A stretch of 64,000 nt of DNA from Lentisphaeria bacterium (GCA_017629515.1 JAGBXB010000073.1:2939-66938), one strand, 5' to 3'; numbered from the stretch's first letter, positions 2 to 48,687 are shown. Notes: a model not told the origin generated them from the sequence alone. Numbers and translations are program-made.

Positions 2-460
2 AATTCAAGACAGGGCCCTCCGGGACGAAGTTACTATAATGTGGAATTCAGAAGTGACGGGATCTACGGGCTCAGTTATCCCGCCTACGGATACAATTAT
101 ATGGGAGTGGGTTCCAGCTGGGCGCATGATCAGAAATTTCTGTCCGATTCCAATGCCCGGCTGCGGGAGATCAAATATCCTGCCCGCCTTTATATGGCTA
201 TGGATACCAAGGATGCCGCAAACCAGTACGGGCACGCTCTTCTGCGGTGCAAAGCTTCCACTGACAGCAATAACGGTGTAGCGGATGCTTTCCGTCATAA
301 GGGGACGGTCAATATCCTTTACGGGGATAATCATGTGGGGAAAATAAAATGTTCCCCTTACCACGCTTATGCCCCCAATGCCCTCCACAGTTATGACCGC
401 GCTCCCTACAAGCCGGTAGCCTGGACGGGCGGCAGGTTCGGGAATGAAGATTTACAGTAA
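2..460 (+). CDS. Prepilin-type (DUF1559, H-X9-DG-like) pseudopilin-family protein, C-terminal fragment. The 5' end lies outside the window.
   Basis: The frame is open from position 2 with no stop upstream. The C-terminus 'RHKGTVNILYGDNHV' resembles the H-X9-DG signature of the four full-length paralogs in this window. It sits immediately upstream of a DUF4838-like gene, as does the 41803 paralog. Confidence 0.55.
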   Translation, partial: NSRQGPPGRSYYNVEFRSDGIYGLSYPAYGYNYMGVGSSWAHDQKFLSDSNARLREIKYPARLYMAMDTKDAANQYGHALLRCKASTDSNNGVADAFRHKGTVNILYGDNHVGKIKCSPYHAYAPNALHSYDRAPYKPVAWTGGRFGNEDLQ

Positions 461-542
461 TTTTGCAGATATTATCAGAATTTATCTTGTATTTGAGGCA
501 TTTGAGGGCTATAATACATTGATATAATCAAGGAGTTTCCCC

Positions 543-3323
543 ATGAAAAAGATGAATGTTACTTTATTGTTTTGCTGTTGTTTTCTTTTTACCTTTTCTG
601 CTTTTTCCCTGCCGGCAACTGCGGGAGCTGTTCTTGCGGAAAAAGGAAAGATCTGTGCAAAAGTTGTTCTTCTCCCCGATGCCGGAAAGGAGGAAACATT
701 TGCCGGAAAATTTCTGGAAAAATATCTTGAAAAGATCACCGGCGGCAAAATGCCTTCCGGTACGCAGAATAGTCTTTCCATTACTCTTGCAACTGTGAAA
801 AACGCTGCGGCAGTTCTGCCGGAAGATATGGTTTCCCAATTGAAAGAAAATGGTCACGGAGAAGCGTTTTACATCCGGATAAGTCCCGCCGGGATCTATA
901 TTGGAGGGAATACTCCCCAGGGAGTGCTCTACGGAGTTTTTACCTTTGTGGAAAAATATCTGGGTGTCAGATGGTTCCATGCCGGAAAGGATGGGGAACA
1001 TTGCCCGAAAACAGCTTCCATCACCCTTGCTTCCTGCAATGATTTCCAGTTCCCCGCCTTTACCCGCCGCAGTGCCGGAGGATGGCATGGTTCTGTAGCA
1101 CCCTGGGATATCGGAGATTATCATATCTGGCAGATCCGGAACAAAATGCAGGTACGGACTCCGCAGATGAATCAGAAAAATGTGGAAAAAACAGATGAGC
1201 GTCTTTTCGGAAACATGAAACGGGAATACGGTAATCACATGACATTTTTACAGGCGGTTCCGGATCGGCTTTTTAAAACCCATCCGGAATATTTCCCCTT
1301 GCAGAAGGGGAAAAGGACTCTTGTTCAACGCTCCCAGAGATGTCTTTCCAATCCGGAAGTACAGAAAAAAGTTATTGATTACGGTGTCCGCAAAGGTAGA
1401 GAAGGCGATCTTTTCGGCGTCGGGTTCCACGATTCCATCCATACCTGGTGCGAATGTGAAAACTGTATCAGAATGGGTACTTACAACGGGAAATACTCTT
1501 TAAGCAATATCGCCCATAAATTTGCTGCCGATATGACAAAAAAGATCCTGCAAGCCTGCCCGGATGCCGGCGGGCAGCGGGCTTTGATCTATGCCACTTT
1601 CCGCGAGCTGCCGGATGATCCCTCCATCCGGTACGATGAAAGAGTCATGGTTCTTTACTGTTCTCATGGCAGATGTTATGTGCATCCATTGAATTCTCCG
1701 GGAACTTCCTGCAATACCAAGTTCCTGCGGGATATAAAAGAGTGGAAAAAACGCTGTCCTTATATGGGGATCTACGATTATTATGCCTACTCCAATTCCC
1801 CTTACTGCCCGTTGGAATATATCCTTGCTGAAGACCTTAAATATTACTATCATACTCTGAATTTACGGGCTTTTTACGATGACAACACCAATAAAAAACT
1901 GCCCATAACGGAAAGTAACTGGCAGTTCCATTATGTTCTTGCCAAACTTCTCTGGAATCCGGATCTGGATATGGATAAACTGATGGATGAAACCTATACC
2001 CTTTATTATGGTAAAGCAGCTCCGATCATGAAAAAATATCATGCTGTCAGACGGCAATTGTGGGAAAATCTCCCCGGACATGTGGGGTATTGTATAAGCA
2101 ATGGCAGATACCGTTACTGTATTCCCGATGATAAAACGGCTTCCGCTCTTCTTGCCCAACTGCGCAGTGCAATAGAAATGGTCAAGGGGGAGGCTCTTTA
2201 TGTTTCCCGTATCCGGAGAGATGAAAAATTTTTGCGGGAATTCTGGATAAAAGATGGCAAAACTGCAAGAGACGGCCGTTCTGCATATAAACAGAGCCTT
2301 CGGGGAGTCTATGCCGGAGAAGGGAAAGTGAAAATCGACGGGAGTCTGGATGAGGAAGTCTGGAAAAAAGCCCCGCCGGTAAAGGGATTCCTGACCGGGG
2401 AAAGAACTCCCCCTCCGGAGGAAAGTGCCATCAGGATCGCTTATGACAGTACCTCCATTTATATCGGATGTGAACTTATGACCCGGAACACCTGGGGGGG
2501 AAAACTCAAAGCGGATGCTGTGAAAAAAGATTCCCATGTTTATCTGGATGACTCCATCGAGTTTTTCATCAATCAGGGGAACAACGATTATTACCATTTT
2601 GTTGTCAATTCTATTGGGACACTGTATGATGCCAGGATAAGAGACAGTTCCTGGGAATCCCGTGTGGAGGTCAAAACAAAAGTTCTGAAAGACCGCTATA
2701 TCGTGGAAGTGAAAATCCCTCTTGCGGATGTCCGGATCGATCTTACCGCAACTGCTCCGGTTAAAATGCACTTCTTCCGCAACTGTTTCTCTTTGCAGCC
2801 GCCTGCCAATGAGGTGAAGTTCGGATTGAACGGGAACCGCCCCCATGAACCGGTGGTTTTCCAGCAGGTGTATTTAAGTAATGCCATGGCTCTTCTGAAT
2901 GGGGATTTCACTCTTTTTGAGAAAAAAGGCAAATCTCTTTTCCCTGTCATGTGGAGCGGCAGATGGGCACTTTACGATGAAAAAGGCAAATTTTTCCATT
3001 TGAAAAGCGGCTCCATGTGGAGCAAACTCAATATTGCCAATTATTCCACTTCGGAATATCTGATCACCGGTACTGTGCAGGCTTCCGGCAAAGGCGTCCT
3101 TCAATTTGTCAAGAGTTCCTGTATAAGGGAAAAAGGGGATAAAAGACCATTCCGGCATGAATTGAAAGAGACGGTTTTCCGGACGGAACTTCAGGAACAA
3201 TGGCAGACTTACCCTGTCTCATTCAGAGTAAAAAAGAATGAAACAGGTTTTCTCACAGTCAATGGTACTGATGCAAAGATCCGTTCCATCCTTCTGCACA
3301 GGATCGTGGAAAAAAAGAAATGA
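543..3323 (+). CDS. Secreted DUF4838-like (glycoside-hydrolase-associated N-terminal domain) protein with a CBM9/DOMON-like carbohydrate-binding domain.
   Basis: N-terminal signal peptide (MKKMNVTLLFCCCFLFTFSAFSLPATA). The CBM9-like segment reads 'DGSLDEEVWKKAPPV...YLDDSIEFFINQ'. It is a paralogue of 42577..45501 with the same architecture. Confidence 0.55.
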   Translation: MKKMNVTLLFCCCFLFTFSAFSLPATAGAVLAEKGKICAKVVLLPDAGKEETFAGKFLEKYLEKITGGKMPSGTQNSLSITLATVKNAAAVLPEDMVSQLKENGHGEAFYIRISPAGIYIGGNTPQGVLYGVFTFVEKYLGVRWFHAGKDGEHCPKTASITLASCNDFQFPAFTRRSAGGWHGSVAPWDIGDYHIWQIRNKMQVRTPQMNQKNVEKTDERLFGNMKREYGNHMTFLQAVPDRLFKTHPEYFPLQKGKRTLVQRSQRCLSNPEVQKKVIDYGVRKGREGDLFGVGFHDSIHTWCECENCIRMGTYNGKYSLSNIAHKFAADMTKKILQACPDAGGQRALIYATFRELPDDPSIRYDERVMVLYCSHGRCYVHPLNSPGTSCNTKFLRDIKEWKKRCPYMGIYDYYAYSNSPYCPLEYILAEDLKYYYHTLNLRAFYDDNTNKKLPITESNWQFHYVLAKLLWNPDLDMDKLMDETYTLYYGKAAPIMKKYHAVRRQLWENLPGHVGYCISNGRYRYCIPDDKTASALLAQLRSAIEMVKGEALYVSRIRRDEKFLREFWIKDGKTARDGRSAYKQSLRGVYAGEGKVKIDGSLDEEVWKKAPPVKGFLTGERTPPPEESAIRIAYDSTSIYIGCELMTRNTWGGKLKADAVKKDSHVYLDDSIEFFINQGNNDYYHFVVNSIGTLYDARIRDSSWESRVEVKTKVLKDRYIVEVKIPLADVRIDLTATAPVKMHFFRNCFSLQPPANEVKFGLNGNRPHEPVVFQQVYLSNAMALLNGDFTLFEKKGKSLFPVMWSGRWALYDEKGKFFHLKSGSMWSKLNIANYSTSEYLITGTVQASGKGVLQFVKSSCIREKGDKRPFRHELKETVFRTELQEQWQTYPVSFRVKKNETGFLTVNGTDAKIRSILLHRIVEKKK

Positions 3324-3591
3324 TTTTTCCGGAATAAAACTTGCCGGGAAAGAAAAACTTATTGCCTGGTCCCTCCCGGCAGACAGTTCTGCCGATCATA
3401 AAATCCCTCTGTTTCCGGGGCGGAGGGATGTTCTGTTTTAAAAAAACGGGGGAGTTCTGCTTTAAAACCGGTAAAAAAGAAGATTTTTTCGTAAAAAAAT
3501 GACTTATCAAGTTGATTTTACCGCAAGATGAGTTAAATTTCTCAAAGTATAATTTTTACATTGCATCATGTTTTAAAGGAAGGAGAAAACG

Positions 3592-4821: not shown

Positions 4822-5625
4822 ATGTCCATTCTTATTACCAGTGCTAAAAATCCCCGCGTCAAACATGCCTGCTCCTTACGGGAACGGAAAGAAAGGGACA
4901 AAGAAAAAGTCACTATTCTGGAAGGGTACAGGGAACTTTCCCGTGCTCTTGCTCTGGGGATCAAATTCAGAGAGTGTTACTTTGCCCCGGAATTGTATCT
5001 GGGGGAAAATGAACCCGCCCTTATTGACGCAATAGAAAAAAGCGGTGCGGAATGTTTTGAAACCACTTCCACCATTTTACAGAAACTTGCCTACCGGGAA
5101 CGCCCGGAAGGATTGATCGCCATTGTGGAAATGGAGAAAAAAGGTCTGGAATGTATGCCCGTACTTTCCAACGGACTTTATCTTGTTGCTGAAACCATTG
5201 AAAAACCCGGTAATCTGGGAAGTATTTTACGCAGTGCCGATGCAGTCAATGCCACAGGTGTCATCATCTGCAACCGGCAGACGGATATATTCAATCCCAA
5301 TGTGATCCGGGCAAGTACCGGGGCTATTTTCTCCGTTCCTGTTGCGGAATGTACTTCCGAAGAAGCTGTGGCGTGGCTGCGGAAAAATAATATCCGTTCC
5401 CTTGCTGCCACCCCCCATACGGATCTGATCTATACAGAAAACGATATGACCGTGGCGACTGCCATTGTTGTCGGCGCAGAACAGTACGGACTTTCCGATT
5501 ACTGGATGAATAATGCCGATACCCAGGTGGTGATCCCCATGCTGGGCAAAATGGATTCCCTCAATGTCGCTACCGCTGCAACACTTCTTCTCTACGAAGC
5601 AGCAAGGCAGAGAAACTGGAAATAA
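4822..5625 (+). CDS. TrmH/SpoU-family RNA 2'-O-methyltransferase (RlmB-like).
   Basis: SpoU motifs 'ETIEKPGNLGSILRSADAVNATGVIIC' and 'SLNVATAATLLLYE', with an N-terminal substrate-binding domain. Confidence 0.8.
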   Translation: MSILITSAKNPRVKHACSLRERKERDKEKVTILEGYRELSRALALGIKFRECYFAPELYLGENEPALIDAIEKSGAECFETTSTILQKLAYRERPEGLIAIVEMEKKGLECMPVLSNGLYLVAETIEKPGNLGSILRSADAVNATGVIICNRQTDIFNPNVIRASTGAIFSVPVAECTSEEAVAWLRKNNIRSLAATPHTDLIYTENDMTVATAIVVGAEQYGLSDYWMNNADTQVVIPMLGKMDSLNVATAATLLLYEAARQRNWK

Positions 5626-5651
5626 CCCTTTCCAAAGGAGAAATATTTTTA

Positions 5652-13825: not shown

Positions 13826-13837
13826 TAGAGAAAAAGA

Positions 13838-19941: not shown

Positions 19942-20868
19942 TCATACATTACTGTCTTTTTTTAAAATTTCATCCCCGGAAAGAGATTTTTTTTGAATTT
20001 TTTCTCTGTAAAGGGTGGGAGTCATGCCGGTTCGCTTTTTAAAATCGCTGGCAAAGTAGAGTTGATTGCGGTATCCGCAGTAACTGGCAATCTGTTTTAC
20101 AGGGAGATTGGGGGAGGATGCAAGCAGATCTCTGGCGTATTTATGACGCTCCTCAATAATGTAATCTCCGGGGGAAAAGGAGGTGTATTGGCGGAAAAGA
20201 GCGCATAATCTTGTCCGGGAACAGCCCGCTTCCTTGCAGAGATCCTGTAAGGTGATCTTCTGGAAAAGATTGCGCTGGATGAATTGTTGACTCAAAATTA
20301 CTTCCACAGGAAGATTTTTCTGCGGCACAAACCGCAGTGCATACATAAGAACGGCATATCCCAAAAGAGAAAGTTTCGGGGAAAGCCGGGGATCTTTTTT
20401 CCCCAGAAGATGATAGATCTCATCAAAAAGTGCCTCATATTCCTTTGTGAAAAAGTCTTTGATGATGATACATCTGTTCAGACCGAAATTTTCCAGAATG
20501 ATACGCAGTAAATATCCTTCTATGCCGATGACGCAATGTCCTGCCTCCCCCTCTTCTGCGGTAATGGTACGGGGGCCGGGGGGGATGAGGATGGTTTCTC
20601 CGGCTTTCACATGATAGACCTCTCCATTGCAGATGATTTGCAGTTTCCCTTTTTTCATATTGTAGACGCACCAGCATTCGTAATGGGTGTGGCGTACAAA
20701 ATAATCCTTGGCGTATGTGGCTTCGTTGGCAAAATAGGGCCACAGGACAAGGGGGAAGTTATCAAAGGGTCTCCAATTATTCTGCCGGATCTTCAAGCGG
20801 TGCAGAAGAGCATTGTTGAATGAACTTTTATTGACGATCTCCACAGATAAAAACTCCTTTTTTACCAT
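19942..20868 (-). CDS. AraC-family transcriptional regulator (cupin sensor domain plus HTH).
   Basis: C-terminal AraC HTH signature '...DLCKEAGCSRTRLCALFRQYTSFSPGDYIIEERHKYARDLL...YFASDFKKRTGMTPTLYRE'. Divergent from the pseudopilin cluster. Confidence 0.85.
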   Translation of the reverse strand: MVKKEFLSVEIVNKSSFNNALLHRLKIRQNNWRPFDNFPLVLWPYFANEATYAKDYFVRHTHYECWCVYNMKKGKLQIICNGEVYHVKAGETILIPPGPRTITAEEGEAGHCVIGIEGYLLRIILENFGLNRCIIIKDFFTKEYEALFDEIYHLLGKKDPRLSPKLSLLGYAVLMYALRFVPQKNLPVEVILSQQFIQRNLFQKITLQDLCKEAGCSRTRLCALFRQYTSFSPGDYIIEERHKYARDLLASSPNLPVKQIASYCGYRNQLYFASDFKKRTGMTPTLYREKIQKKSLSGDEILKKDSNV

Positions 20869-21076: not shown

Positions 21077-21209
21077 GTCGCATAATATACATTATGTGAA
21101 ACAAAAAAGACATTTTTCCCGTACGAAACGGGGATTTTGAGAAGGTCGGGAAGGTTGAAAAATAACAAAAATGAACTCAAAGGAGGTAACATAATGTATA
21201 TTATGCGAC
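21077..21209 (+). promoter_or_regulatory. Conserved 5' leader in which a 20-nt inverted repeat pairs an upstream site with the start-codon region of the pseudopilin gene.
   Basis: 21077-21096 'gtcgcataatatacattatg' is the exact reverse complement of 21190-21209 'cataatgtatattatgcgac'. The second arm covers ATG 21194 and ATG 21203. The 93-nt spacer contains the SD 'aaggagg'. The same arrangement recurs at 41686-41820. Confidence 0.6.
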
Positions 21210-21934
21210 GCCACAATTTTACGCTGATCGAACTTCTTGTTGTTATTGCGATCATCGCTATTCTTGCAAGTATGCTCCTTCCTGCGTTGAATCGGGCAAG
21301 GGATGTGGCAAAGGCCGTGAACTGTAAAAGCAACCTCAAACAGATCGGTTATACTTTGCGTCTGTATGCGGATACCTACAAGGGCTGGGTTCCCAACTAC
21401 TCTTCCGCACATCATTTTCTTATTGTCGCAGTGGAACATGTGCATGGAATCAACCTGTTGGCGGAATGGAACTCCAGACCGAAGAAAAGTCTTGCCTACG
21501 GCTGTCCCGGCATCGACCGCCCCCGCTTGACAAGTTCCGCATACTGGGGCCGAAACCATTATGGAACATTGCTTGTCACCACTCTTTCCGACTGGCTTTC
21601 CAAAGCATATTACCTTTCTACGGATACCAGTGGGCAGAGACCCTATTTCTGGAACTTTGACAGAGTACCCGATCCCCAGAAGAGGATTTATTACGGTGAC
21701 AGTCAGGCGTATGCGAATACTGAACAGACTGAATTTGCTCAGTCTGCCTACTTCCTTACCAAATTTACCACCAGCACCACAGGGACAGGTAAACCTCTGT
21801 TAAGTTTGCGCCATCAGGATGCCACCAATGTTGGATTTGTGGATGCCCATGTGGAAACCTTGAAAAAGGTGGATCTGAAAACAAAATTCAATTACAGTGC
21901 TGCATGGGTAAGAAATATCCCCATGGAATTCTGA
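21194..21934 (+). CDS. Prepilin-type N-terminal cleavage/methylation-domain (DUF1559, H-X9-DG) pseudopilin-like protein.
   Basis: '[37 protein letters not shown]' and the C-terminal '[16 protein letters not shown]'. Start set at the ATG after SD 'aaggagg'. Confidence 0.8.
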
Positions 21935-22761: not shown

Positions 22762-23511
22762 TTGATGAAACAAAAAAACTTTACTCTTATTGAGTTGCTG
22801 GTAGTCATTGCAATTATCGCTATTCTTGCAAGTATGCTTCTTCCTGCGTTGAACCGGGCAAGGGATATGGCAAAGGCAATCAGCTGCAAAAGCAATCTCA
22901 AACAGTTGGGCTATACCGTAAGATTGTATGCTGACAGCAACAAAGGCTGGACACCCAATTACCTTGTATCTTATCACTGGCTTGATTTTCTTTCCCAGCA
23001 GGTTCACGGCAAAATCATCCGTACCGGAGCCCCCACCAATCCCAAGGACAGTGCCGCTTACGGTTGTCCCGGAATGGAAAGACCTCCTGTTTACACAAAT
23101 GAATGGGGGATGAATCATTACGGAAGCTGGCTTGTTACTCCCGGTTCTGACGGGTTCAAACAATACAGATGGCTTTCCCAGACGAAACAGTTTTCCACAG
23201 ACTCAAGTGCTTCTTATTTCTGGAACCTTGACCGCTATCCCAAACCTGCGGAAAGAATTTATTACGGCGATACCCAGCAGACTTATGAGATTACTGCCAG
23301 AAATAACAGAACCAAAGCACAGGTGGGATTTTTTAAAGACAGTATCAATGCTTCTTCCTACCCCAACAATCCGCTGCTGCATCTGCGTCATCTGGACGCC
23401 GCCAATGTGGGATTTATGGATGGTCATGTGGCAAGTCCCAAAAAACTGGATCTGAAAGTAACCTATCTTTTCAGAGCTGCCTGGGTGAGAGAAGTTCCTG
23501 TATCATTCTGA
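22762..23511 (+). CDS. Prepilin-type (DUF1559) pseudopilin-like protein, member of the tandem triplet.
   Basis: '[34 protein letters not shown]' and '[16 protein letters not shown]'. The intergenic spacer is nearly identical to the one before the 21976 gene. Confidence 0.8.
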
Positions 23512-23564: not shown

Positions 23565-26500
23565 ATGAAGAAGATTTTTGCTTCATTGTTTCTTGTTTTC
23601 GCTGTGCTTTTTACAGTGCAGGGAGCAAAAGATGATGGACTTGTAGTCCATTACAAATTCGATGAGGGCGAAGGAAATATCGCCAGAGATTCCTCCGGCA
23701 ACGGGCTGGATGCCACTCTCGTTGAAACCACATGGGAAAAATTCGGCGTGCAGGGAAAAGCCGTCAGACTTGACCACACCAAAAAGAAAGCCCATATCCA
23801 GCTTCCCAAGAGTGATAAACTCATACTGGAAAAAGAGATGACGCTTTCTCTTTACTTCAAAGTGGAAAATTTTTACAAAGGACTTACACTTTTTTCCAGC
23901 AGTAACTATTATCTGGGCTGGACAAGTGTTGTTTACAGAAGTTTCATTACTTTCTCCTCCATTGACAGAAACAACCGTAATGATAAACGCAACGGCGGCC
24001 TCTGCCGGGTCTCTCTCGCTGCCGGAACAGGGCCTCTTGCCCCCTTCCACAATGTAGTCTTTACCGTCGGCCCCGATCCGGACAATAAAGACCAGAATAT
24101 TTTGAATATCTATCTGGACGGGAAAAAACTTTCTCACAAAGGAGTAAGCAATTTCCCCATGCGCGCCCCCATCCGTGTGAATAAACGCGTTCCCCTCACC
24201 ATCGGGCATTTCACCTCTGCGGAAGGTCAGTGGTTCAGCGGGATCATTGATGAAGTAAAGATCTACAACAGAGTCCTTTCTGCCGATGAGATCGCAAAAA
24301 ATCACAGAAGAACCACGACCCAGAGTACAGAAGGTCCCGGCGAAAAAGTCCAACTTAAAAAAGTGGATTTCAAACCTCTGAAAAATAAAAAGGTCGCCCT
24401 TTACTCTCCTCTGAAAGTTACCAAAGCACAACTTGCCGGAAGTCGGGATGAAGGGAAAGACTCCCCCCGCCATGTTGCCGCATGGGGTACTCCCATCCGC
24501 AGTGTGGAATGGTTCAAAGAACAGGCGGAAAAACTCGGCTGTAAAGTAACCATCCTTGATGATGCCCGCCTTTCCGATAAAAAATATCTTGTCAAAAAGA
24601 ACTTTGATACCCTGATCCTTCCTGCCGGTGTCATCCCCTTTGAAGCGGAAGAATCCATTTTTGAATACCTCGTTACCGGAGGAAATCTTTTCACCCCCAC
24701 CGTTCTGCCCAGCGTCTATAAAAGATATGCAGATGGTTCTTTCGGTAAATTCAGAGGTAACTACCTGAAAAACCATACAAGAGGCTGGTACAGTCCCTTC
24801 CTTTTGCGTACTACTCCCGGTGCAAACGGTTTGCGCTGGTGGGTGGCTCCTCTGGGACTGAATCCCGGTGTGGTGGATATTACAGGCGACCTCATGGCTG
24901 CCGTTGTAAAGAACCCCAATCCCAAAAGAAGAGTGGCTTACCGCCCTCTGGACAGATGGGGCAAGATCCCCGGTCTTGACGGTGCATACGGCGACGGCAA
25001 CAACTATGCTCTGGGTGCTGATGTTCAGGTGGAACTCTACCGGGAACGTACAGGGATAGGTTCCGGCTTTGCCGTCTACCGTTATTACAACAACCTTATC
25101 TTCGGTTCCACACTTGCCCAGCTGGGATCCATCGGGGAAAGTCTGATCAAAGGCAAAGACGGGGATAAATATTTCAAAGCAGTCATGTATCTTCTGGAAA
25201 GCAAACTGCCCGGAGAACAGAATACAACTTATTACAGAAATGCTGTGGATCTGCACAAAGAATGGAGTGAACTGGGTTTCACCTATACTTCCGCCGTTGC
25301 CGCATTGCGCGATGCTTCTTTCTATGCTTATCTTTCCGGCAGGGAATGGAAAAGCTTTGCAGAAAAACTTACAGAAATGGAAAAAGAATTCAATGCTTTG
25401 AACGGGGAACGCAAAACCCAGAAACAGCTTCTTTTCTCCGGAAAATATGCCGAATGCAGCAAATGCACCGCAGAGTTGCTTGCCAAAGTAAGAGTTTCTG
25501 CCGGAAAATATGCTTCCTGTATCGAAGAAGGCAGAAAAGCTGTTGCTGATGCCAAAGTGCCTGCCAAAGTGCCTGTCAAACACAAATACGGTACGATCCC
25601 CTCCATCGCTTCCACTGTCATCCCCACCAACCTTTCCATGTTCCGGGGAAGATTGTTTGATTCCATCCGCAGGATCGGTTCCAATATTTACAGCGGTATG
25701 ATAGATGACTGGTATGCAGAAGATCCCCAGGTACAGAAAAAACTTAAAGGACTTCTCCGTGACCACAAGTTTGTTTATGCCGCCGGTCCCCGCGTCCTTG
25801 TCCGCGGCGGGCATTTCAACCCTGCCAACGGTACTGTAAAAGACGCTCCGGAAGTGATCTATCCGGAAAAAAACCTTTCCAAATATCTGGAAAATGTTTT
25901 CAAAGTCTGGAAATGGAAAGGCAAAGAACAGTTCCGTATCGGAACGGCCGATGAAACCGGTATCGGATTGAACTACTGGGGTTCCCAGGCAAAACGGGAT
26001 CTGCAGAACCATCTGAAAAAATACTACAATAACGATGTGGCGGCAATGAACGCGCATTGCGGCACTTCCTATAAATCTTTCGATGAAGTTGCTGTCCCCG
26101 TCCGTAAACCGGAAACCTCTGCACAGCATGCCATCTGGGAACACTTCAACAAATGTCGTGAAGCCTATCTGGAACGCATTTACAGCAATTTCCGCAAACT
26201 TGTGAGAAAATACAATACCGATATCGATGTATTCGCTCTTCCCTCCACAGGCGGATCTCAGCTCCCCCTGTACGGACTGAACTACTACAATGCCACCAAA
26301 TATCAGGATGTGAGCGGTATCGACGGTACCTGCTGTTCCATTGATAAAGAGTGGCTCTTCCTTGACCTCACCACCAAACGTTATCTGACAAGTGAATGGG
26401 GAAAACTCTATCAGGAAGCCACCATGCAGGCTGTCAACGGTCAGATGTGGCAGGAACTTGCCGGCGGAGCCTGGGGCGCAGAACAGCATGTCTGGTGCTT

Positions 26501-29069
26501 CGGGGATGATTCCGTAAACTTTGTTGACCCTGTAAACTGCGCAACCATCTATGGAGCAGTTCTCCATATGGCTCTCAAAGATATGCGCAAACTGGATCAT
26601 CTCATCCTTGACGGGAAACGCTCTGTGCCGGAAGTGGGGATCCTTTTCTCCCAGGCAAGCCGTATCCACGATCAGGGCTGGGGCTGGGCCGGGGGAAGCA
26701 CCACTTCCAACCACATCCTTGCTGTCAGTTACTATTACAAACATTTCCTTTCCTGGGGCAGATCTGCAAGAGTTTTTGCAGAAGAAGCACTTGTGGAAGG
26801 AAATATGCCTCCTGTAAAAGTCCTTATCGTTCCCCAGGCGGAATTCCTTTCTGAAAAAGTGCAGAAAGCCCTTCTGGATTATGTGAAGAAAGGCGGAAAA
26901 CTCATTATCGAAGGCAGAGCGGGCAAGTTTGATGAATTCGGCAGAAAATCCGATCTCATCTTCCGTACAGCCGGTGTGATCCCTGCTTTCTCCGATGCAA
27001 AAAATGCCACGATGGAAAAGAGTGTTCTGGGCATCCAGAAAGATGATTCCATCTACTCTCCCGCAGGCAAAGGCAAAGTTCTTGCCTCCTATGATAAGGA
27101 AAATGCCGCCATTCTGACCAATACATTCGGCAAAGGCTCCATTACCTTTATGGGGATCGGCCTGGGCTGCTACAAATACAGCAGTTTTGCCCCCGTACTG
27201 GAAAGAGTACTGCGTTCCCTTGATGTGGATGCAAGATTCAAAGTTTCCGATGATTCCCTCGTTCTGCGTGAATGGGAATACAATGGGGATACCTATCTTC
27301 TTGTCACCGGCAACAGTGATAAGTGGGACATGAAAGAGGTTGCCGTAGGCATCCGCGGAAAAGTAACGGTGGAAGATTATCTTTTCGGCAAAAATGCCAA
27401 AACCTCTTATAAAGACGGTTACACCACATTCAAATCACTCTTTGCCAACGGCGGAAGAGTTTTCCGTATCAAAGGGAAAATCGCTCCTGCCGGACGCCTT
27501 GCCGGAAAAGCAGACTTTAAACTTGTCAGCAGTTCCGGTGCCAAAGACGATGTAAAGAAATTCGTTCTCCCCTACAAAGGCAATATTTACAGTGACACCC
27601 CGCTGAAAAACGGCGATTATACTTTCAGTGCCGCCATTCTTGGTTCCGGGGCAAACAACCGTATCGGAAACGCCTTCCTCACTGTTTCCGGCAACGGCGA
27701 ATCCCAGAGAAAACGCCTTGTGGAAGGGGAAACCATCTTCTTCCGTATGCGGAAAAAGATTTTCTCTGTGAAATGCACACAGAACTTCTTTATGTATCCT
27801 TTCTATACGGTCGTGGAAGTCAAAGAGGTGAAAGAAGTCCCCGCTTCCAAAGGGGCGAAAGTACAGCGTAGAGGAAAGAATATCACTCTTTCCAATGATC
27901 TGCTTTCCCTTACTTTCAGCAGTTTGGGCGCAGAAATGATCTCCTTTCTGCCCCTTGCGGAAAGAGAGGATATCGTAAAGGTAAGAAAAGCCGGAGTGAT
28001 CTCCGGCGCAGCCCCCGGGCCTTTCTATAATGTGAACTTCAATGTCAAAACCGCAAAGAGCAAAGAGGGCGTTGTTGCAGATTTCTCCCTGCCTTCCCCT
28101 GTTGCCAATAAACTCATCACCCAGAAAGCTACCCTCCTTTCCGATGCGGCAGTATGCAAACTGGATTTCGTCTGTACGAACAAAGCGATCAATCCTGCCA
28201 ATTTCGATGTGCGTTACCGTCCCGGTCTGCAAGTGGGCGGCGCGGCGGATAACGGAGATGCTTTCTTCGTCCAGAAAAAGGATGGTTCTGTGCAGCATGT
28301 CATGTTCCGCGGTCAGAATACCGGAAAAAGATATACGGACAGCGGCGATTGGGCGGCTGTGGTGGATACCCAGCAGAAAGTGGCATGGATCAATGTGATC
28401 ACCAACGGGAACAAGGGGGAATATTTCTACTTGTGGGAAGCCTCCGACTTTTACAATATGGAACTTTTCGGCCCTGTGAAGAAAGTTCTTTCCGGGGAAT
28501 CCATCACATTGAACATGGCGATCATGTATATACACGGTCTTACCGGAGTGAGTGCGGTCAATAATCTGAATGCAGCTTTTCTTGTGATCCCGGATGTGGT
28601 CAATCAGAAAAAAGCATTTGCTCCTGTACTGGAAATTGCCACTGCAAGCAGCAAACTTACCTCCGTCAGCGTGAATTCCGCTCTTTACAAGGACGGCAGA
28701 AAGGTCATGGATTTTTCCGATGCAAAGGATAAGATCGCCTTTGATCTGCCTGCCGCATTCTCTTTGAAAACGGCAAAAAGTGTCAAAGACCTTGCAGACG
28801 GAGAATATACGATAAAAGTAAATATTCTTTCCGCAAACGGGAATATTTCCTGTGAAAGAAAAGTAAAGTTTGCCGGAAGGATCATTGAAAAACTTTCTGC
28901 GGACTGTAATAGCCTTGCGAAAAAACTTGATGAACTGGAAAAGAAAATTTCCACAGATGCCAGATTTGCGCTTCTTGTGAAACTGGGCGAATTGAAAAAA
29001 GCCATTTCCAGCAACAATCTGGATGCGGCTTCTAAAATCGCGGCAGAATTGAAAACAGAAATGAAATAA
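23565..29069 (+). CDS. Giant (1834 aa) secreted protein: signal peptide, N-terminal LamG/concanavalin-like domain, glycoside-hydrolase-like core with a GH42-type trimerisation-like module, and a C-terminal coiled coil.
   Basis: Signal 'MKKIFASLFLVFAVLFTVQGA'. LamG-like 'LVVHYKFDEGEGNIARDSSGNGLDATLVE...AVRLD'. A segment 'KVLIVPQAEFLSEKVQKALLDYVKKGGKLIIEG' resembles the GH42 trimerisation domain. The 1053-aa minus-strand ORF is antisense. Confidence 0.5.
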   Translation: MKKIFASLFLVFAVLFTVQGAKDDGLVVHYKFDEGEGNIARDSSGNGLDATLVETTWEKFGVQGKAVRLDHTKKKAHIQLPKSDKLILEKEMTLSLYFKVENFYKGLTLFSSSNYYLGWTSVVYRSFITFSSIDRNNRNDKRNGGLCRVSLAAGTGPLAPFHNVVFTVGPDPDNKDQNILNIYLDGKKLSHKGVSNFPMRAPIRVNKRVPLTIGHFTSAEGQWFSGIIDEVKIYNRVLSADEIAKNHRRTTTQSTEGPGEKVQLKKVDFKPLKNKKVALYSPLKVTKAQLAGSRDEGKDSPRHVAAWGTPIRSVEWFKEQAEKLGCKVTILDDARLSDKKYLVKKNFDTLILPAGVIPFEAEESIFEYLVTGGNLFTPTVLPSVYKRYADGSFGKFRGNYLKNHTRGWYSPFLLRTTPGANGLRWWVAPLGLNPGVVDITGDLMAAVVKNPNPKRRVAYRPLDRWGKIPGLDGAYGDGNNYALGADVQVELYRERTGIGSGFAVYRYYNNLIFGSTLAQLGSIGESLIKGKDGDKYFKAVMYLLESKLPGEQNTTYYRNAVDLHKEWSELGFTYTSAVAALRDASFYAYLSGREWKSFAEKLTEMEKEFNALNGERKTQKQLLFSGKYAECSKCTAELLAKVRVSAGKYASCIEEGRKAVADAKVPAKVPVKHKYGTIPSIASTVIPTNLSMFRGRLFDSIRRIGSNIYSGMIDDWYAEDPQVQKKLKGLLRDHKFVYAAGPRVLVRGGHFNPANGTVKDAPEVIYPEKNLSKYLENVFKVWKWKGKEQFRIGTADETGIGLNYWGSQAKRDLQNHLKKYYNNDVAAMNAHCGTSYKSFDEVAVPVRKPETSAQHAIWEHFNKCREAYLERIYSNFRKLVRKYNTDIDVFALPSTGGSQLPLYGLNYYNATKYQDVSGIDGTCCSIDKEWLFLDLTTKRYLTSEWGKLYQEATMQAVNGQMWQELAGGAWGAEQHVWCFGDDSVNFVDPVNCATIYGAVLHMALKDMRKLDHLILDGKRSVPEVGILFSQASRIHDQGWGWAGGSTTSNHILAVSYYYKHFLSWGRSARVFAEEALVEGNMPPVKVLIVPQAEFLSEKVQKALLDYVKKGGKLIIEGRAGKFDEFGRKSDLIFRTAGVIPAFSDAKNATMEKSVLGIQKDDSIYSPAGKGKVLASYDKENAAILTNTFGKGSITFMGIGLGCYKYSSFAPVLERVLRSLDVDARFKVSDDSLVLREWEYNGDTYLLVTGNSDKWDMKEVAVGIRGKVTVEDYLFGKNAKTSYKDGYTTFKSLFANGGRVFRIKGKIAPAGRLAGKADFKLVSSSGAKDDVKKFVLPYKGNIYSDTPLKNGDYTFSAAILGSGANNRIGNAFLTVSGNGESQRKRLVEGETIFFRMRKKIFSVKCTQNFFMYPFYTVVEVKEVKEVPASKGAKVQRRGKNITLSNDLLSLTFSSLGAEMISFLPLAEREDIVKVRKAGVISGAAPGPFYNVNFNVKTAKSKEGVVADFSLPSPVANKLITQKATLLSDAAVCKLDFVCTNKAINPANFDVRYRPGLQVGGAADNGDAFFVQKKDGSVQHVMFRGQNTGKRYTDSGDWAAVVDTQQKVAWINVITNGNKGEYFYLWEASDFYNMELFGPVKKVLSGESITLNMAIMYIHGLTGVSAVNNLNAAFLVIPDVVNQKKAFAPVLEIATASSKLTSVSVNSALYKDGRKVMDFSDAKDKIAFDLPAAFSLKTAKSVKDLADGEYTIKVNILSANGNISCERKVKFAGRIIEKLSADCNSLAKKLDELEKKISTDARFALLVKLGELKKAISSNNLDAASKIAAELKTEMK

Positions 29070-41471: not shown

Positions 41472-41499
41472 TTGACATTTGCAAATACATGGATATAAT
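41472..41499 (+). promoter_or_regulatory. Candidate sigma70-type promoter (TTGACA -16- TATAAT) about 300 nt upstream of the 41803 pseudopilin gene.
   Basis: Near-consensus -35/-10 hexamers read directly from the sequence. Confidence 0.35.
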
Positions 41500-41685: not shown

Positions 41686-41820
41686 CGTCGCATAATATAC
41701 ATTATGTGAAGTAAAAAAGAAAAATTTTGAGCTTGAAACAGAAAAATTAAAAAATAAAAGAGTGTAAAAAATAAAAAAAATAAACTCAAAGGAGGCAACA
41801 TAATGTATATTATGCGACGT
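41686..41820 (+). promoter_or_regulatory. Conserved 5' leader in which a 22-nt perfect inverted repeat pairs an upstream site with the start-codon region of the pseudopilin gene. Second copy of the element at 21077-21209.
   Basis: 41685-41706 'acgtcgcataatatacattatg' is the exact reverse complement of 41799-41820 'cataatgtatattatgcgacgt'. Spacer 92 nt with SD 'aaggagg'. Confidence 0.6.
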
Positions 41821-42552
41821 AACAACTTTACTTTGATCGAATTATTGGTGGTTATTGCTATCATCGCCATTCTTGCCGGGATGCTCCTCCCCGCCCTTGC
41901 CAGAGCAAGAAAAACAGCCCAGGGGATCACCTGTACAAGCAATTTGAAACAGGTTTATTATTTCCATCTTGTTTATGCAGATATGTCCAAAGACTGGGCG
42001 TATGCCGGGTATTATAATGCCCACAGAAAATATACTACCTATATCAGTGCTTACAGTAAAACAAATCTGGGGATCGCCCCCTGGACAAATGTACTGGGAA
42101 ATGATACAAAGTTATTATCCTGCCCGTTGGCAAGATCCTATTTTCCTACTGCCGCCAATGTAAACAGCAACTATTTTCCCTGCGGAAATCTGGCAAGAGG
42201 ATTGAACAATGCTGCCGATAAAGTCCGTAACTGGATCGGTTCCGATCCTGACGGAAAGTATGTTGGCGGTTACTTTGCCAACGGCTCCTATTTCAAAGTT
42301 TCTTCTGCAAAAAGACCCTCCATTCTCCATTTCAGCAACTGTACCAAAGACAGTAATACCAGTGGTTATATGTGGGGTTTTCACGGAAACAAGGGCAAAG
42401 CGGTCAATATGCTCTGGGTTTCCGGTCATGTAAGTCAGTTTGACTTCAAAGATAAATACCACAGCACCTACGCCTGGGAGAAAGGCATCATGCGTTCAAA
42501 CTTTTACAGCTGTGAAGCCTATCCTTGCCGTGGTGACAGTACCAGAAAATAA
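41803..42552 (+). CDS. Prepilin-type (DUF1559-like) pseudopilin-like protein.
   Basis: '[37 protein letters not shown]' and a C-terminal '[11 protein letters not shown]' variant of H-X9-DG. Confidence 0.75.
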
Positions 42553-47196: not shown

Positions 47197-48687
47197 TTAA
47201 AAATTGACCGTTGCCCGTTCATATTCTTCCCAGGAGGTTTCTCCGTGGATGACGTAACTCATGATCCGGGAACCCAATGCCCCTGCGCCTATGGTGGAAT
47301 CCACATACTCTTTTACATCGGAAATGGTACTTCCCTGCTGTTCCAGAACACGGCGCAACCCCTCATCCATGACCAATACCTCAAATACCGCGATCCTGCC
47401 TTTATAACCGGTCTGACCGCATTTTGCACAGCCGCAGGGCTGTTTGATGGCATCGAAAGGAATATTGTATTGCCGGCAGTAAGCCTGTTGTACACTGTTG
47501 AGTTCCGCCGGCTTTTTGCAATGGGGGCAGAGGCGGCGTATCAATCTCTGGGATATACTCATTTGAAGAGCGGCGGCAATATTGCGCAACGGTATGCCCA
47601 GATCGGTGAGACGCACGATGGTACCGATATTATCGTTACTGTGCAAAGTGGCTATGATCAGGTGTCCTGTCTGTGCCGCCTGCGCCGCAACTCCGGCAGT
47701 TTCCTCATCCCGGATCTCCCCAAGACAGATGATATCCGGATTCTGACGCAAAGAGTTGCGCAGTACCGACGCAAAAGTGATACCGGCTTTGGAATTTACT
47801 TCGATTTGACTGATGTTGGGGATCACCCTTTCCACAGGGTCTTCAATGGAAAGAACATTTTTCAATCCGTAGTCAATACTGCCCAACATGGAGTATAATG
47901 TGGAGGTTTTTCCGCTTCCGGTAGGTCCGCAGACAAGAATCATGCCCGAGGGCAGTTTGATGGCTGCATCCAGTTTGGCAAACTGACTTTTGGAAAGTCC
48001 CAGATCGGTAAGTTTTCTGTTGCCGCTTTCCGAAGCGATCACCCTTATTGTGACCTTTTCCCCGCCGTAAACCCCTACTGTGGCAACACGGAATGCCACT
48101 GGATTGTGTTTATATGTGGCGTTGAACGCTCCGTCCTGGGGGCGGCGTCTTTCTGTAATATCCATACTGGCAAAGACTTTAAACATACTGATAACAGGCA
48201 GCGCCTCCTGTTCTGTAAGAGTGCTGTGCCCCCTTATGGAACCATCCACACGGAACCGGACAAAGTAGGAACCGTTTTTAGGGTCGATGAAAATATCACT
48301 TGTTTTGGTTTCCAGAGCATCCTGAATGATCTTTTTAACAGATTGTGCGCCCTCTTCATTACCGTTCTTTTCCAGCATATCTCTTCCGGCTTCATCCACA
48401 ATGGTCAGAGAATTAACAGCCTGTTTCTTTTTGTTCATCCCCCCTCCGGCAACAGCTTCCGGCATGAAAACAGACTTGAAAAAATCTCTCTTTTCCCATA
48501 CAAGAAATGTTGCCGCTGCGATAAATCCCAGAGGCAGGGAAAAAAGAATGATATAAGGTTTTGCTTCTGCAGGCAGTTGCAATTTTTTCCTTTTGGAAAA
48601 AGATTTCATTGCCCAGAGTCCGGCAAGGAGCCAGCAGAAGAAGATGACTACTCCAATAAAATTTACCGGTATGGTATCAAGTGACAT
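47197..48687 (-). CDS. GspE/PilB-family secretion ATPase with an N-terminal two-helix membrane anchor.
   Basis: Walker A 'VCGPTGSGKTSTL', Asp box 'SIEDPVE', Walker B / His box 'NPDIICLGEIRDEETAGVAAQAAQTGHLIIATLHSND', and a tetracysteine motif 'CPHCKK...CAKCGQTG'. The N-terminal 65 aa hold two hydrophobic helices. Confidence 0.75.
   Translation of the reverse strand: MSLDTIPVNFIGVVIFFCWLLAGLWAMKSFSKRKKLQLPAEAKPYIILFSLPLGFIAAATFLVWEKRDFFKSVFMPEAVAGGGMNKKKQAVNSLTIVDEAGRDMLEKNGNEEGAQSVKKIIQDALETKTSDIFIDPKNGSYFVRFRVDGSIRGHSTLTEQEALPVISMFKVFASMDITERRRPQDGAFNATYKHNPVAFRVATVGVYGGEKVTIRVIASESGNRKLTDLGLSKSQFAKLDAAIKLPSGMILVCGPTGSGKTSTLYSMLGSIDYGLKNVLSIEDPVERVIPNISQIEVNSKAGITFASVLRNSLRQNPDIICLGEIRDEETAGVAAQAAQTGHLIIATLHSNDNIGTIVRLTDLGIPLRNIAAALQMSISQRLIRRLCPHCKKPAELNSVQQAYCRQYNIPFDAIKQPCGCAKCGQTGYKGRIAVFEVLVMDEGLRRVLEQQGSTISDVKEYVDSTIGAGALGSRIMSYVIHGETSWEEYERATVNF

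Follow-up and report, generated by a model that had tools for sequence, protein, structure and literature searches.

Pairing of prepilin-like genes with genes of large signal-peptide proteins in a gut Victivallales genome and its relatives

Three times in a 64-kb window (the whole stretch of DNA analysed) from a gut Victivallales (Lentisphaerota) genome, prepilin-like genes lie directly upstream of a gene encoding a very large protein with a signal peptide. The question raised by this locus is whether such an adjacency exceeds chance and, if so, what the small protein may do for the large one. PVC bacteria rank among the main degraders of complex glycans in the gut and the ocean, and are not known to have the SusC/D machinery by which the glycan foraging of Bacteroidota is explained.

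All the three units are encoded on the + strand, and in each a single large gene starts 24-82 nt after a group of one to three prepilin-type genes (Table 1). The gap is 82 nt in the first unit, 53 nt after the tandem triple of the second and 24 nt in the third; recomputation gave the same coordinates and gaps for the three pairs as the first-pass annotation. The large genes encode proteins of 926-1834 aa with signal peptides, which were called without a dedicated predictor, from N-terminal sequences judged by eye and by our own heuristic. Among the ~48 called genes of the window, 3 of the 3 signal-peptide proteins of at least 700 aa are directly downstream of a pilin cluster. A + strand scan between pilin and enzyme found no terminator-like site in the window units. 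Terminator-like sites have been identified after the 926-aa gene (3403-3429) and directly after the 1834-aa gene (29096-29127, a hairpin with a 14-bp stem and a T-run); a hairpin with T8 after the stop of the 974-aa gene (~45540-45585) was seen by eye only, the scanner having made no call. The product of the first gene of the triple is identical to P0030 of a Lentisphaeria MAG locus (NCBI).

Table 1. Features of the three units and of associated genes in the 64-kb window
Position	Strand	Feature	Basis
2..460	+	C-terminal 152 codons of a prepilin-type DUF1559/H-X9-DG gene; N-terminus beyond the window	HMM of family C-terminal domain, homologs, motif RHKGTVNILYGDNHVG
543..3323	+	Predicted exported glycosidase-like protein, 926 aa: GH20b/GH67N-like N-terminal domain, DUF4838, CBM9	Pfam; signal-peptide-like N-terminus MKKMNVTLLFCCCFLFTFSAFSLPATAGA
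19942..20868	-	AraC-family regulator, divergent from the triple-pilin unit	Pfam HTH_18, HTH_AraC, AraC_binding
21079..21207	+	5' leader inverted repeat; arm 21079-21100 pairs with arm 21186-21207 over the start codon of pilin 1	Predicted stem ~23 bp, z -7.0
21194..21934	+	Pilin-like gene 1 of tandem triple, 246 aa, start MYIMRRHN/FTLIEL	PF07963 1.4e-07, weak PF07596
21976..22722	+	Pilin-like gene 2, 248 aa	PF07963; TIGR04294 (H-X9-DG) 17.8 bits, below cut-off
22762..23511	+	Pilin-like gene 3, 249 aa	PF07963; TIGR04294 16.0 bits, below cut-off
23565..29069	+	Predicted exported multidomain protein, 1834 aa: LamG/ConA-like and GH42M/GLMA-like domains	Pfam; N-terminus MKKIFASLFLVFAVLFTVQGA
41472..41499	+	Promoter-like site upstream of the third unit	TTGACA-16-TATAAT, 12/12, consensus match only
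41689..41816	+	5' leader inverted repeat; arm 41689-41710 pairs with arm 41795-41816 over the pilin start codon	z -11.1
41803..42552	+	Pilin-like gene, 249 aa, start MYIMRRNN/FTLIEL	PF07963
42577..45501	+	Predicted exported DUF4838 and CBM9 glycosidase-like protein, 974 aa	Pfam
47197..48687	-	GspE/PilB-family assembly ATPase	Pfam T2SSE 1.3e-106

The 926-aa protein has been assigned the Pfam domains DUF4838 (E 6.8e-40) and CBM9_1 (1.2e-08) besides its GH20b/GH67N-like N-terminal domain, and the 974-aa protein DUF4838 and CBM9_1. DUF4838 (PF16126) scores 137.6 and 48.1 bits respectively in these two proteins, the cut-off being 26.6. This domain is the catalytic domain of GH163/GH185 (PMC10570127), and both the partners are predicted from it to be GH163/GH185-type glycosidase-like proteins. 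Regions corresponding to Laminin_G_3, GH42M and GLMA_2nd are recognised in the 1834-aa protein. Since the two DUF4838 paralogs are 25% identical and the pilins of their units 22%, the pilin-enzyme pairs are ancient and not the result of recent duplications; an ortholog pair persists with 58% identity in the pilin and 36% in the enzyme. The partner families vary, and comprise DUF4838 with CBM9, DUF4838 with GH2_N, LamG/GH42M, a CBM4_9-like protein and a 1312-aa GH2_N-like protein. BLAST comparisons of the partner enzymes revealed no docking module common to them.

The pilin-like proteins have a predicted architecture of a basic leader, a hydrophobic N-terminal trans-membrane helix and a folded periplasmic head, a topology that is established for prepilins (PMC4471445). 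PF07963 (N_methyl) matches all four complete pilin genes of the window and 47 of the 47 aligned members of the family, with TIGR02532 also above its cut-off. The N-terminal helix of 24 residues is invariant, alpha1N being the same through (G/S)MLLPAL with Phe+1 and Glu+5 strictly conserved, and this invariance is at the level of protein, the coding DNA varying at synonymous sites. Phe+1, Glu+5 and a conserved alpha1N are the hallmark of processed subunits that assemble into filaments. Under the one shared helix the heads are highly variable, the hundreds of paralogs being otherwise 25-35% identical. The proteins adopt the lollipop fold, with a long N-terminal helix on an antiparallel β-sheet head, and the head matches pilins and not binding proteins.

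The prepilin peptidase rule in bacteria calls for Gly at position -1 of a short hydrophilic leader (PMC4471445). The canonical Gly is not present in the window, where 4 of the 4 complete pilin genes have Asn. In the Victivallales-like relatives this position is occupied by N, S, H, R, G, A, E, K, F, Q and others, mostly not Gly or Ala, and in other PVC loci G or A is found in 62 of 78. The non-Gly position makes processing by prepilin peptidase, and hence filament assembly, uncertain; it also challenges the textbook rule for bacterial prepilins.

The small proteins had been labelled DUF1559 in the first-pass annotation. Among the complete window pilins PF07596 is matched by the ORF at 21137-21934 only, with 20.1 bits and below the gathering cut-off of 23.3, the other three being unmatched, and both the TIGR04294 scores are under the cut-off of 19. 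The label is thus sub-threshold for the four complete genes and is valid at the level of the family, because 15 of 47 relatives match PF07596 at E<=0.01. By their profile scores the window pilins belong to the superfamily as divergent members, and are not clean members of PF07596. The truncated gene at the left edge has no Pfam or NCBIfam match of its own; it matches the HMM of the C-terminal domain of the family (E 2.8e-6), and its full-length homologs (P0121-P0126; 72-46% identity, 252-264 aa) contain PF07596, PF07963 and the invariant helix. Judged from these sequence comparisons it is a genuine family member. In the family alignment H194 is invariant and N202 and G208 are near-invariant; the fragment has H-x9-D-N rather than H-x9-D-G (HKGTVNILYGDN), and some of the homologs were named H-X9-DG proteins by JGI.

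In the non-redundant Victivallales-like loci, a signal-peptide protein of at least 700 aa follows directly on 10 of the 16 pilin clusters and on 2 of 140 other genes (p 2.8e-10), the exact counts being approximate as the loci were retrieved by pilin similarity and the genes come from our own simple caller. Such an adjacency enrichment, put forward as a check in the first-pass annotation, is strong in this lineage and recurs in loci other than the window and its orthologs (5/10 pilin clusters versus 1/81 other genes, p 3.1e-5). The pairing exceeds chance in this gut Victivallales genome and its relatives, lineage-wide. Relatives also show alternating orders, namely pilin, 800-aa protein, pilin, DUF4838 (L004) and DUF4838, pilin, pilin, DUF4838 (L003), and two separate units each made up of a regulator, a pilin and a large enzyme in that order (L096). 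Genes of GH3, GFO_IDH, esterase and rhamnosidase in the same loci have no preferential pilin upstream. Exceptions are 5-6 of the 16 clusters, which precede cytoplasmic-looking or unrelated genes such as GFO_IDH_MocA (start MIKLALYGCGNR), FAD oxidoreductase, carboxyl transferase, ABC ATPase, GNAT and a divergent AraC. A double ABC ATPase is downstream of the pilin in L103, where a permease was not recognised; the pilin gene is solitary in L106 and is followed by housekeeping-type genes in L095.

In the metagenome loci of other PVC bacteria the enrichment for a large partner is at most marginal, and the gene downstream is usually a small one (88-330 aa in most cases); a signal-peptide-like N-terminus is found on the gene after the pilin in 27/35 cases versus 67/126 (p 0.008). 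The pairing is a trait of the Victivallales-like lineage and not of DUF1559 proteins generally. The functional coupling proposed from three occurrences is strengthened by the common strand, the gaps of 24-82 nt, the absence of an intervening terminator-like site in the units, the terminator-like hairpins after the large genes, the promoter-like site and shared leader ahead of the first pilin gene, and the recurrence with long-diverged partners and in relatives, and the units are probably functionally coupled two-part modules. We found no description of the pairing of a pilin with a giant enzyme in the searchable open-access literature, in agreement with the earlier impression that it was undescribed for DUF1559 proteins.

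The divergent AraC arrangement at the triple-pilin unit is also seen in three related loci (L100-L102), and pilin units of the relatives have divergent regulators of the AraC, GntR/LacI or IclR type. The structured leader, with its arm coding for MYIMRR, recurs before several otherwise divergent pilin genes and is not present at the second and third tandem pilins and at many paralogs. A single gene of a GspE/PilB-family ATPase has been identified in the window, with no prepilin peptidase or platform gene identified there; its NCBIfam GspE and PilB matches are all below the equivalog cut-offs. This ATPase is a candidate component of a shared type IV filament/T2SS machine.

The reading that we prefer, with a probability of about 0.42, is that each pilin-like protein may serve as a cargo-dedicated, membrane-anchored partner by which its enzyme, or the glycan of that enzyme, is brought to a shared type IV filament/T2SS machine. 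Each unit would then be a self-contained, substrate-inducible transcription unit with promoter, structured leader, one to three pilin-fold genes, one giant enzyme gene and terminator, and the architecture suggests co-transcription of the pilin and enzyme genes. The pilin-like protein would insert in the inner membrane by its N-terminal helix. Because this helix is invariant across hundreds of paralogs of 25-35% identity, we infer it to be the surface by which the proteins dock on, or are assembled by, a single shared machine of the type IV filament/T2SS type. The variable head, on the periplasmic side, would contact the co-encoded enzyme specifically and work as an adaptor or chaperone dedicated to that cargo, or else as a filament subunit bearing the enzyme. 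The giant Sec-exported glycosidase might thus be handed to the machine and be exported or displayed at the cell surface.

The one pilin per enzyme that alternates in L004, L003 and L096 supports such a partnership. The three pilins before one enzyme in the second unit indicate that it is not simply 1:1, and the cytoplasmic-looking neighbours of 5-6/16 clusters and the lack of a docking module common to the enzymes speak against a cargo-dedicated partner. Of the earlier proposal that each exoprotein may have a dedicated pilin-like partner, the functional coupling is well supported, with pilins adjoining diverse and much diverged enzymes; the pairing is not strict. Secretion, tethering and delivery of substrate are alternative roles that the pilin-like protein may have. 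A further extension would regard Victivallales as having a cargo-addressed type IV filament system of interchangeable pilin-like subunits, with a shared helix and one head per giant glycosidase, in which, on induction of a unit, its enzyme would be taken up by a common pseudopilus or pilus, to be exported or displayed on the pilus in a cellulosome-like array; we consider this picture rather unlikely as a whole.

The variable head could alternatively bind polysaccharide and not the enzyme, in which case the pilins would be subunits with substrate specificity in a retractile or surface filament, or in a bindosome-like surface layer. They would catch the glycan and deliver it either to the enzyme regulated with them or to the periplasm, and so have in PVC bacteria without SusC/D a role like that of SusD-like proteins in Bacteroidota. 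The pilins are the first genes after divergent regulators of sugar type (AraC, GntR/LacI, IclR), a position where binding proteins are often encoded, and the scan of the window genes gave no SusC/SusD-type gene. Some pilin genes share an operon with catabolic enzymes that are not exported, and one immediately precedes the double-ABC ATPase, which fits a substrate-side role better than an enzyme escort. There are precedents in the sugar-binding proteins of the archaeal bindosome, which carry class III signal peptides (PMC4471445), in a type IV-like pilus locus for which a role in the attachment of Akkermansiaceae to fucose-rich glycans has been proposed (PMC13174399) and in the minor pilins of Streptococcus sanguinis, which are reported to form a glycan-binding complex (PMC9934059). 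The alternation of one pilin with each large enzyme and the units made up of pilins and one enzyme only are, however, unexpected if one binder per substrate suffices. The pilin-fold head has no recognisable CBM, lectin or periplasmic-binding-protein domain by Pfam, NCBIfam and fold comparison, and binding modules (CBM9, LamG or GH2_N) are already present in the large enzymes. Binding of glycan by the head is a somewhat unlikely alternative.

Abundant pilin genes might also head sugar-inducible operons without any dedicated partnership, a duplicated cassette of promoter, leader and pilin perhaps having been recruited for expression and the protein having a general envelope function. The recurrence of the leader and its MYIMRR-coding arm before divergent pilins is as expected from the spread of an expression cassette, and the weak or absent pairing in other PVC lineages, the exceptions, the solitary pilin and the housekeeping-type neighbours point the same way. 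The 10/16 versus 2/140 for large signal-peptide proteins is nevertheless well beyond what presence in sugar operons in general would produce, and the other sugar-related genes of these loci (GH3, GFO_IDH, esterase, rhamnosidase) are not preferentially preceded by a pilin. The diversification of the head argues for specific ligands, and the leader is missing at the second and third tandem pilins and at many paralogs; this explanation is improbable. More improbable still is an uncleaved bitopic inner-membrane protein that tethers the enzyme in the periplasm or reports substrate to the regulator, with no filament machine. The predicted trans-membrane helix and periplasmic head would suit it, as would a -1 residue which in most Victivallales-like members is not Gly or Ala, contrary to the prepilin peptidase rule; the strict conservation of Phe+1, Glu+5 and the whole of alpha1N is hard to explain for a plain anchor, and AraC-type regulators, which bind their ligands in the cytoplasm, need no membrane sensor.

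The pairing provides the first clear functional context for the DUF1559/H-X9-DG family, of which Planctopirus limnophila has 68 copies, two of them essential (PMC10632474). The reproducible one-to-one genetic link between a pilin and a giant glycosidase yields testable protein pairs, and points to cargo-specific secretion adaptors or to pilus-based capture of glycans. It is also a practical marker for glycan-degrading units and for new large CAZyme-like proteins in the genomes of Lentisphaerota. If a cargo-addressed filament exists, it would imply that a non-Gly -1 residue is tolerated by a prepilin peptidase or by some route independent of such a peptidase, and a general function of DUF1559/H-X9-DG proteins across PVC as adaptors for a co-encoded exported partner might follow.

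Among the known systems, the polysaccharide utilisation loci (PULs) of Bacteroidota are similar in being substrate-inducible clusters of a regulator, glycan-active enzymes and a recurrent non-catalytic envelope protein, and GH163/GH185-type DUF4838 proteins are also present in the N-glycan loci of Bacteroides. In the units described here it is the pilin-like gene that recurs, often with one enzyme only, and there is no SusC/TonB-dependent transporter or SusD; a Bacteroidota-type PUL was rejected, since no SusC/SusD match by Pfam was found among ~45 proteins of the window or across the neighbour loci that were annotated. The archaeal bindosome (the Bas system of Sulfolobus) and MUL2 of Akkermansiaceae likewise employ type IV filament components for carbohydrate acquisition. 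The bindosome subunits are ABC-type binding proteins encoded beside ABC transporters, whereas here a binding-protein fold is not found; a bindosome-type binding protein was rejected, the head matching pilins and no ABC transporter adjoining the window units. MUL2 is a single conserved locus and here many scattered paralogs are each tied to one enzyme gene.

The DUF1559 (PF07596)/H-X9-DG (TIGR04294) proteins of Planctomycetota and other PVC bacteria belong to the same superfamily, with homologs of the window pilins matching PF07596 and being named prepilin-type processing-associated H-X9-DG proteins in the source databases, and form the largest paralog family in many PVC genomes, of unknown function (PMC10632474, PMC4807772). 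Their sampled loci outside Victivallales differ in having mostly Gly or Ala at -1 and a small downstream gene in place of a giant CAZyme-like protein.

Membrane-associated chaperones of the T2SS are encoded beside their effector at gaps of 22-132 bp, and have an N-terminal trans-membrane helix and a periplasmic C-terminal domain (PMC4713064). The pairs LipB-LipA and CpaB-CpaA of Acinetobacter and the lipase-specific foldases resemble the present units in a small protein with a trans-membrane helix beside an exported enzyme, on the same strand, at gaps of tens of bases and with one partner per effector (PMC4713064). As described for such chaperones (Harding et al. 2016), the window pilins are encoded in a gene adjoining that of the enzyme, with co-regulation suggested by the architecture, and have a predicted N-terminal trans-membrane helix and periplasmic C-terminal region. 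They differ in having a pilin fold and a prepilin-type N-terminus instead of a Lif or SRPBCC domain, and in belonging to one enormous paralogous family that lies upstream of glycosidases of 800-1800 aa.

From type IV pilins, the T2SS pseudopilins (GspG-K) and modular or minor pilins the proteins are distinguished by a leader not ending in Gly, by genes scattered through catabolic units and not clustered with the machinery, by a head of ~190 aa that is larger than that of GspG, and by apparently many paralogs per genome, as extrapolated from 5 in the 64-kb window. They share with them the F-T-L-I-E motif, the long alpha1 helix and the β-sheet lollipop head, and many subunits have a conserved alpha1N in common, as expected for co-assembly by one machine.

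The three arrangements described in the first-pass annotation, in which pilin-like genes precede a gene for a large exported protein, have all been recovered where it had placed them. The pilin-like genes are small prepilin-type genes of the DUF1559/H-X9-DG superfamily, and they occur singly in the first and third units and in triplicate in the second. The N-termini of the large proteins are typically signal-peptide-like, as judged by eye and by a heuristic of our own. No terminator-like site has been found on the + strand between pilin and enzyme genes and terminator-like hairpins follow the large genes, so that the units look like self-contained operons made up of the pilin gene or genes and one enzyme gene.

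Features of the pilin-enzyme units and of their surroundings in the window
Feature	Position	Strand	Remarks
First unit, pilin ORF fragment	2-460	+	82 nt gap to next gene
First unit, 926-aa protein	543-3323	+	DUF4838 (E 6.8e-40), CBM9, GH20b/GH67N-like N-domain
Terminator-like hairpin	3403-3429		directly 3' of 926-aa gene
FAD_oxidored (PF12831) gene	5564-7375	+	no pilin gene upstream
ORF, 513 aa	9499-11040	+	no match in Pfam and NCBIfam
AraC-family gene	19942-20868		divergent from second unit
Leader arms, second unit	21079-21100 with 21186-21207
Second unit, three pilins	21194-21934, 21976-22722, 22762-23511	+	53 nt gap to next gene
Asn(-1) codons, second unit	21215-21217, 21988-21990, 22777-22779
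Second unit, 1834-aa protein	23565-29069	+	Laminin_G_3, GH42M, GLMA_2nd
Terminator-like hairpin	29096-29127		directly 3' of 1834-aa gene; 14-bp stem and T-run
Promoter-like site	29134-29161		of CE4/GH78 genes
CE4/GH78 genes	29183-31990	+	directly past terminator of second unit
ORF, 398 aa	35691-36887	+	no match in Pfam and NCBIfam
Promoter-like site	41472-41499		upstream of third unit; perfect TTGACA-16-TATAAT match
Leader arms, third unit	41689-41710 with 41795-41816
Third unit, pilin	41803-42552	+	24 nt gap to next gene
Asn(-1) codon, third unit	41824-41826
Third unit, 974-aa protein	42577-45501	+	DUF4838, CBM9
Hairpin and T8	after 45501		seen by eye; not called by terminator scanner
212-aa hydrophobic protein	46538-47176	-	no family match
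GspE/PilB-family ATPase gene	47197-48687	-
ORF, 370 aa	56928-58040	-	no match in NCBIfam, the only library used
ORF, 1177 aa	58128-61661	-	no match in Pfam and NCBIfam

The window, a chromosomal segment with a GC content of about 46%, carries housekeeping genes (dxs, murG, ftsW, rpsI, recX and a phosphoglucomutase-family gene) interspersed with many glycan-active genes. The nearest public DNA comes from gut Victivallales/Lentisphaeria MAGs, including JAZKZE01 ('Victivallales bacterium') and, from sheep colon, JAFVRL01 ('Lentisphaeria bacterium'). Contig JAZRIC010000094.1 of GCA_045645085.1, which is also among the closest DNA, matches the window over about 20 kb in gene order and in the length of the gene products. 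The 1177-aa protein does not begin with a signal-peptide-like sequence and, alone among the very large proteins of the window, is not preceded by a pilin gene.

The four complete small genes of the window match PF07963 and TIGR02532. The label DUF1559, applied to them in the first-pass annotation, holds at the level of the family, PF07596 being matched in 15 of 47 relatives, but the complete window genes themselves fall below threshold. Some of the pilin homologs are named H-X9-DG proteins by JGI. The 5' end of the first pilin gene lies outside the window and homologs stand in for the missing part, as exact look-ups of the 974-aa and 926-aa proteins in the assembly index gave no record. The fragment has no library match and is recognised by an HMM of the family C-terminal domain (E 2.8e-6); its full-length homologs (72-46% identity) contain PF07596 and PF07963 and an identical N-terminal helix.

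This helix of 24 residues is invariant in the 47 relatives, whose overall identity is 30-35%, and the DNA coding for it differs at synonymous sites. Invariance of the protein while the DNA varies indicates that the helix is under purifying selection; the synonymous differences rule out that gene conversion has kept the N-terminus invariant. Counting from the expected prepilin peptidase cleavage site, the relatives, including the homologs of the first pilin fragment, show no variation at Phe1, Glu5 or the 20 residues that follow. The four complete genes of the window all have Asn at -1. Victivallales-like members show hardly any constraint at this position (N, S, H, R, G, A, E, K, F and Q), and in loci of other PVC bacteria 62 of 78 cases have Gly or Ala. 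Bacterial class III signal peptides are described as ending invariably in Gly (PMC4471445), so that the variable -1 residue of the pilin-like proteins departs from the defining feature of this class. Either the peptidase of this lineage would be unusually tolerant or the proteins may stay uncleaved.

The two DUF4838 partners share 25% identity with each other and their pilins 22%, which points to old pairs; identities of 22-25% rule out that the three pairs arose by recent duplication, whether tandem or segmental. GH163 (BT1035, an endo-GlcNAc-ase with activity on complex N-glycans) and GH185 (6-sulfo-GlcNAc-ase) both have DUF4838 as their catalytic domain (PMC10570127), which makes two of the three partners plausible glycosidases for host glycans. 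The genes for a CE4-type polysaccharide deacetylase and a GH78-type alpha-L-rhamnosidase next to the second unit have a promoter-like site of their own and constitute a transcription unit apart, one that lacks a pilin gene. They are probably part of the catabolic pathway served by the unit of the triple pilin and the 1834-aa protein.

A block of 22 nt, CGCATAATATACATTATGTGAA, is common to the leaders that precede the first pilin gene in each unit. Its reverse complement is located about 107 nt downstream, overlapping the start codon and coding for M-Y-I-M-R. Four matches to the block are present in the window against none expected, and the leader has also been identified in four related loci, L004 (3694-3817), L095 (4161-4283), L094 (about 6440-6564) and L002 (about 10190-10318). 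The predicted stem is 23-26 bp long (z -7 to -11), with the ribosome-binding site in the loop and the start codon sequestered. According to RNAalifold the stem core is invariant and the outermost pairs have only one-sided, pair-preserving changes. No family has been found in Rfam for this leader; it might act as a hairpin for translational control, an RNase III site or a pair of operator sites, or be the relic of a mobile cassette.

Loci of relatives, fetched by pilin similarity, show the same logic as the units of the window. L005 encodes a divergent AraC regulator followed by GFO_IDH, GH3, pilin and DUF4838/CBM9 genes. In L096, a divergent GntR/LacI regulator stands next to a pilin gene and a gene for a 1312-aa protein, and a divergent AraC regulator next to a pilin and a DUF4838 (947 aa) gene. 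Pilin genes alternate with enzyme genes in L004 (pilin, 800 aa, pilin, DUF4838/CBM9) and L003 (DUF4838, pilin, pilin, DUF4838). As exceptions, the gene after the pilin encodes GFO_IDH_MocA (L010), an FAD oxidoreductase (L098, Victivallis), a carboxyl transferase (L095), an ABC ATPase (L103) or a GNAT protein followed by DUF4838 (L001).

In L001 (JAZKZE01, 10001-16365) the orthologs of the third pilin (86% identity) and of its DUF4838 partner (79%) are set apart by an insert of about 2.7 kb with a divergent AraC gene, a second pilin-like gene (302 aa) and the GNAT gene. Nothing separates the pair in L002 or in the 58%-identical L005, and the arrangement in L001 suggests that the pilin partner is subject to turnover or swapping. 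FAD_oxidored proteins of about 570-600 aa are recurrent; the copy of L098 (10753-12456) follows a divergent IclR regulator and a pilin-like gene. In L103 (8537-13775; 66% GC, probably not Victivallales) the pilin-like gene lies between genes for an enolase-superfamily protein and a double-domain ABC ATPase, in the place normally held by a solute-binding protein, and the ATPase gene is followed by one for a 443-aa protein whose only match, to HEAT, is faint.

All three signal-peptide proteins of at least 700 aa among the approximately 48 called genes of the window follow a pilin cluster. Since the window itself generated the hypothesis, the test was moved to other DNA, that is, to loci fetched by pilin similarity only, many of which are short metagenome contigs. 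For all statistics genes were called by a self-trained codon-usage caller and pilins by family HMM. In Victivallales-like loci a signal-peptide protein of at least 700 aa is encoded by the next gene for 10 of 16 pilin clusters and 2 of 140 other genes (Fisher p 2.8e-10), these being counts with heuristic gene and signal-peptide calls from non-redundant fetched loci and not from a whole genome (contig search with a single pilin gave 4 loci). Excluding the window and orthologs of its pairs, the figures are 5/10 and 1/81 (p 3.1e-5), and the sole background case, a DUF4838 gene, has a pilin gene two positions upstream. In 80 metagenome loci of other PVC bacteria the enrichment is marginal at 700 aa or more (5/52 against 8/258, p 0.049) and not significant at 800 aa or more (3/51 against 5/258, p 0.13).

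In these other PVC loci the adjacent same-strand gene after the DUF1559/H-X9-DG gene mostly encodes a small protein of 88-330 aa, a few reaching about 1500 aa. The pairing with giant enzymes is therefore a trait of the Victivallales-like lineage and is not general to DUF1559 proteins. The downstream proteins have no homology among one another; a signal-peptide-like start is seen in 27 of 35 of those after pilins against 67 of 126 (p 0.008). This pattern hints at a general module of a pilin-like protein and an exported partner across PVC.

The explanation that we favour, at a rough probability of 0.4, is that the pilin-like protein would be a cargo-dedicated partner, escorting or loading the co-encoded enzyme for export or surface display. 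The position of a pilin gene directly 5' of one large exported enzyme is typical of physically interacting partners, as are the alternation of one pilin per enzyme (L003, L004 and L096) and the units of pilin and enzyme only. These features, together with the fit to the definition of T2SS membrane-associated chaperones, argue for this explanation. An invariant helix with variable heads would be expected if many subunits or clients fitted one common type IV filament or T2SS-type machine. The window contains an orphan GspE/PilB-family ATPase gene, whose score does not reach any NCBIfam equivalog cut-off. It is the only T2SS or T4P gene recognised there and lies, with the adjoining gene of the 212-aa protein, 1.7 kb from the third unit. 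All-against-all BLAST of the partner enzymes has revealed only DUF4838 and GH2_N similarities, and no recognisable shared docking module or sorting signal.

The main alternative, a role of the pilin-like proteins in glycan capture, is considered somewhat unlikely. In its favour are the position of pilin genes after sugar regulators, the occurrence of some next to genes for non-exported enzymes or an ABC ATPase, and the absence of SusC/D, and it has precedents in the archaeal bindosome (PMC4471445) and the MUL2 pilus locus of Akkermansiaceae (PMC13174399). That the adjacency reflects regulation only, by spread of a cassette of leader and pilin gene, appears improbable. More improbable still is an uncleaved anchor or sensor, to which the variable -1 residue might point. 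The escorting or loading of a dedicated enzyme stays the preferred reading.

DUF1559 appears in the accessible literature solely as a very large family, specific to PVC bacteria and of unknown function (PMC10632474, PMC4807772, PMC5352709). The papers checked on Kiritimatiellota, Planctomycetota and deep-sea PVC glycan degraders say nothing of pilin-like genes in such a setting. Searches of the open-access literature, which do not prove absence, have revealed no description of a pilin-CAZyme pairing, in agreement with the first-pass annotation, which knew of none for DUF1559 proteins. Membrane-associated chaperones of the T2SS are defined by a gene adjoining that of the effector and by an N-terminal TM helix with a periplasmic domain (PMC4713064). 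The pilin-like genes, with the topology predicted for their products, fit this published definition. By analogy, a unit would function like a T2SS chaperone-effector pair or a minimal PUL, yet it belongs to neither family.
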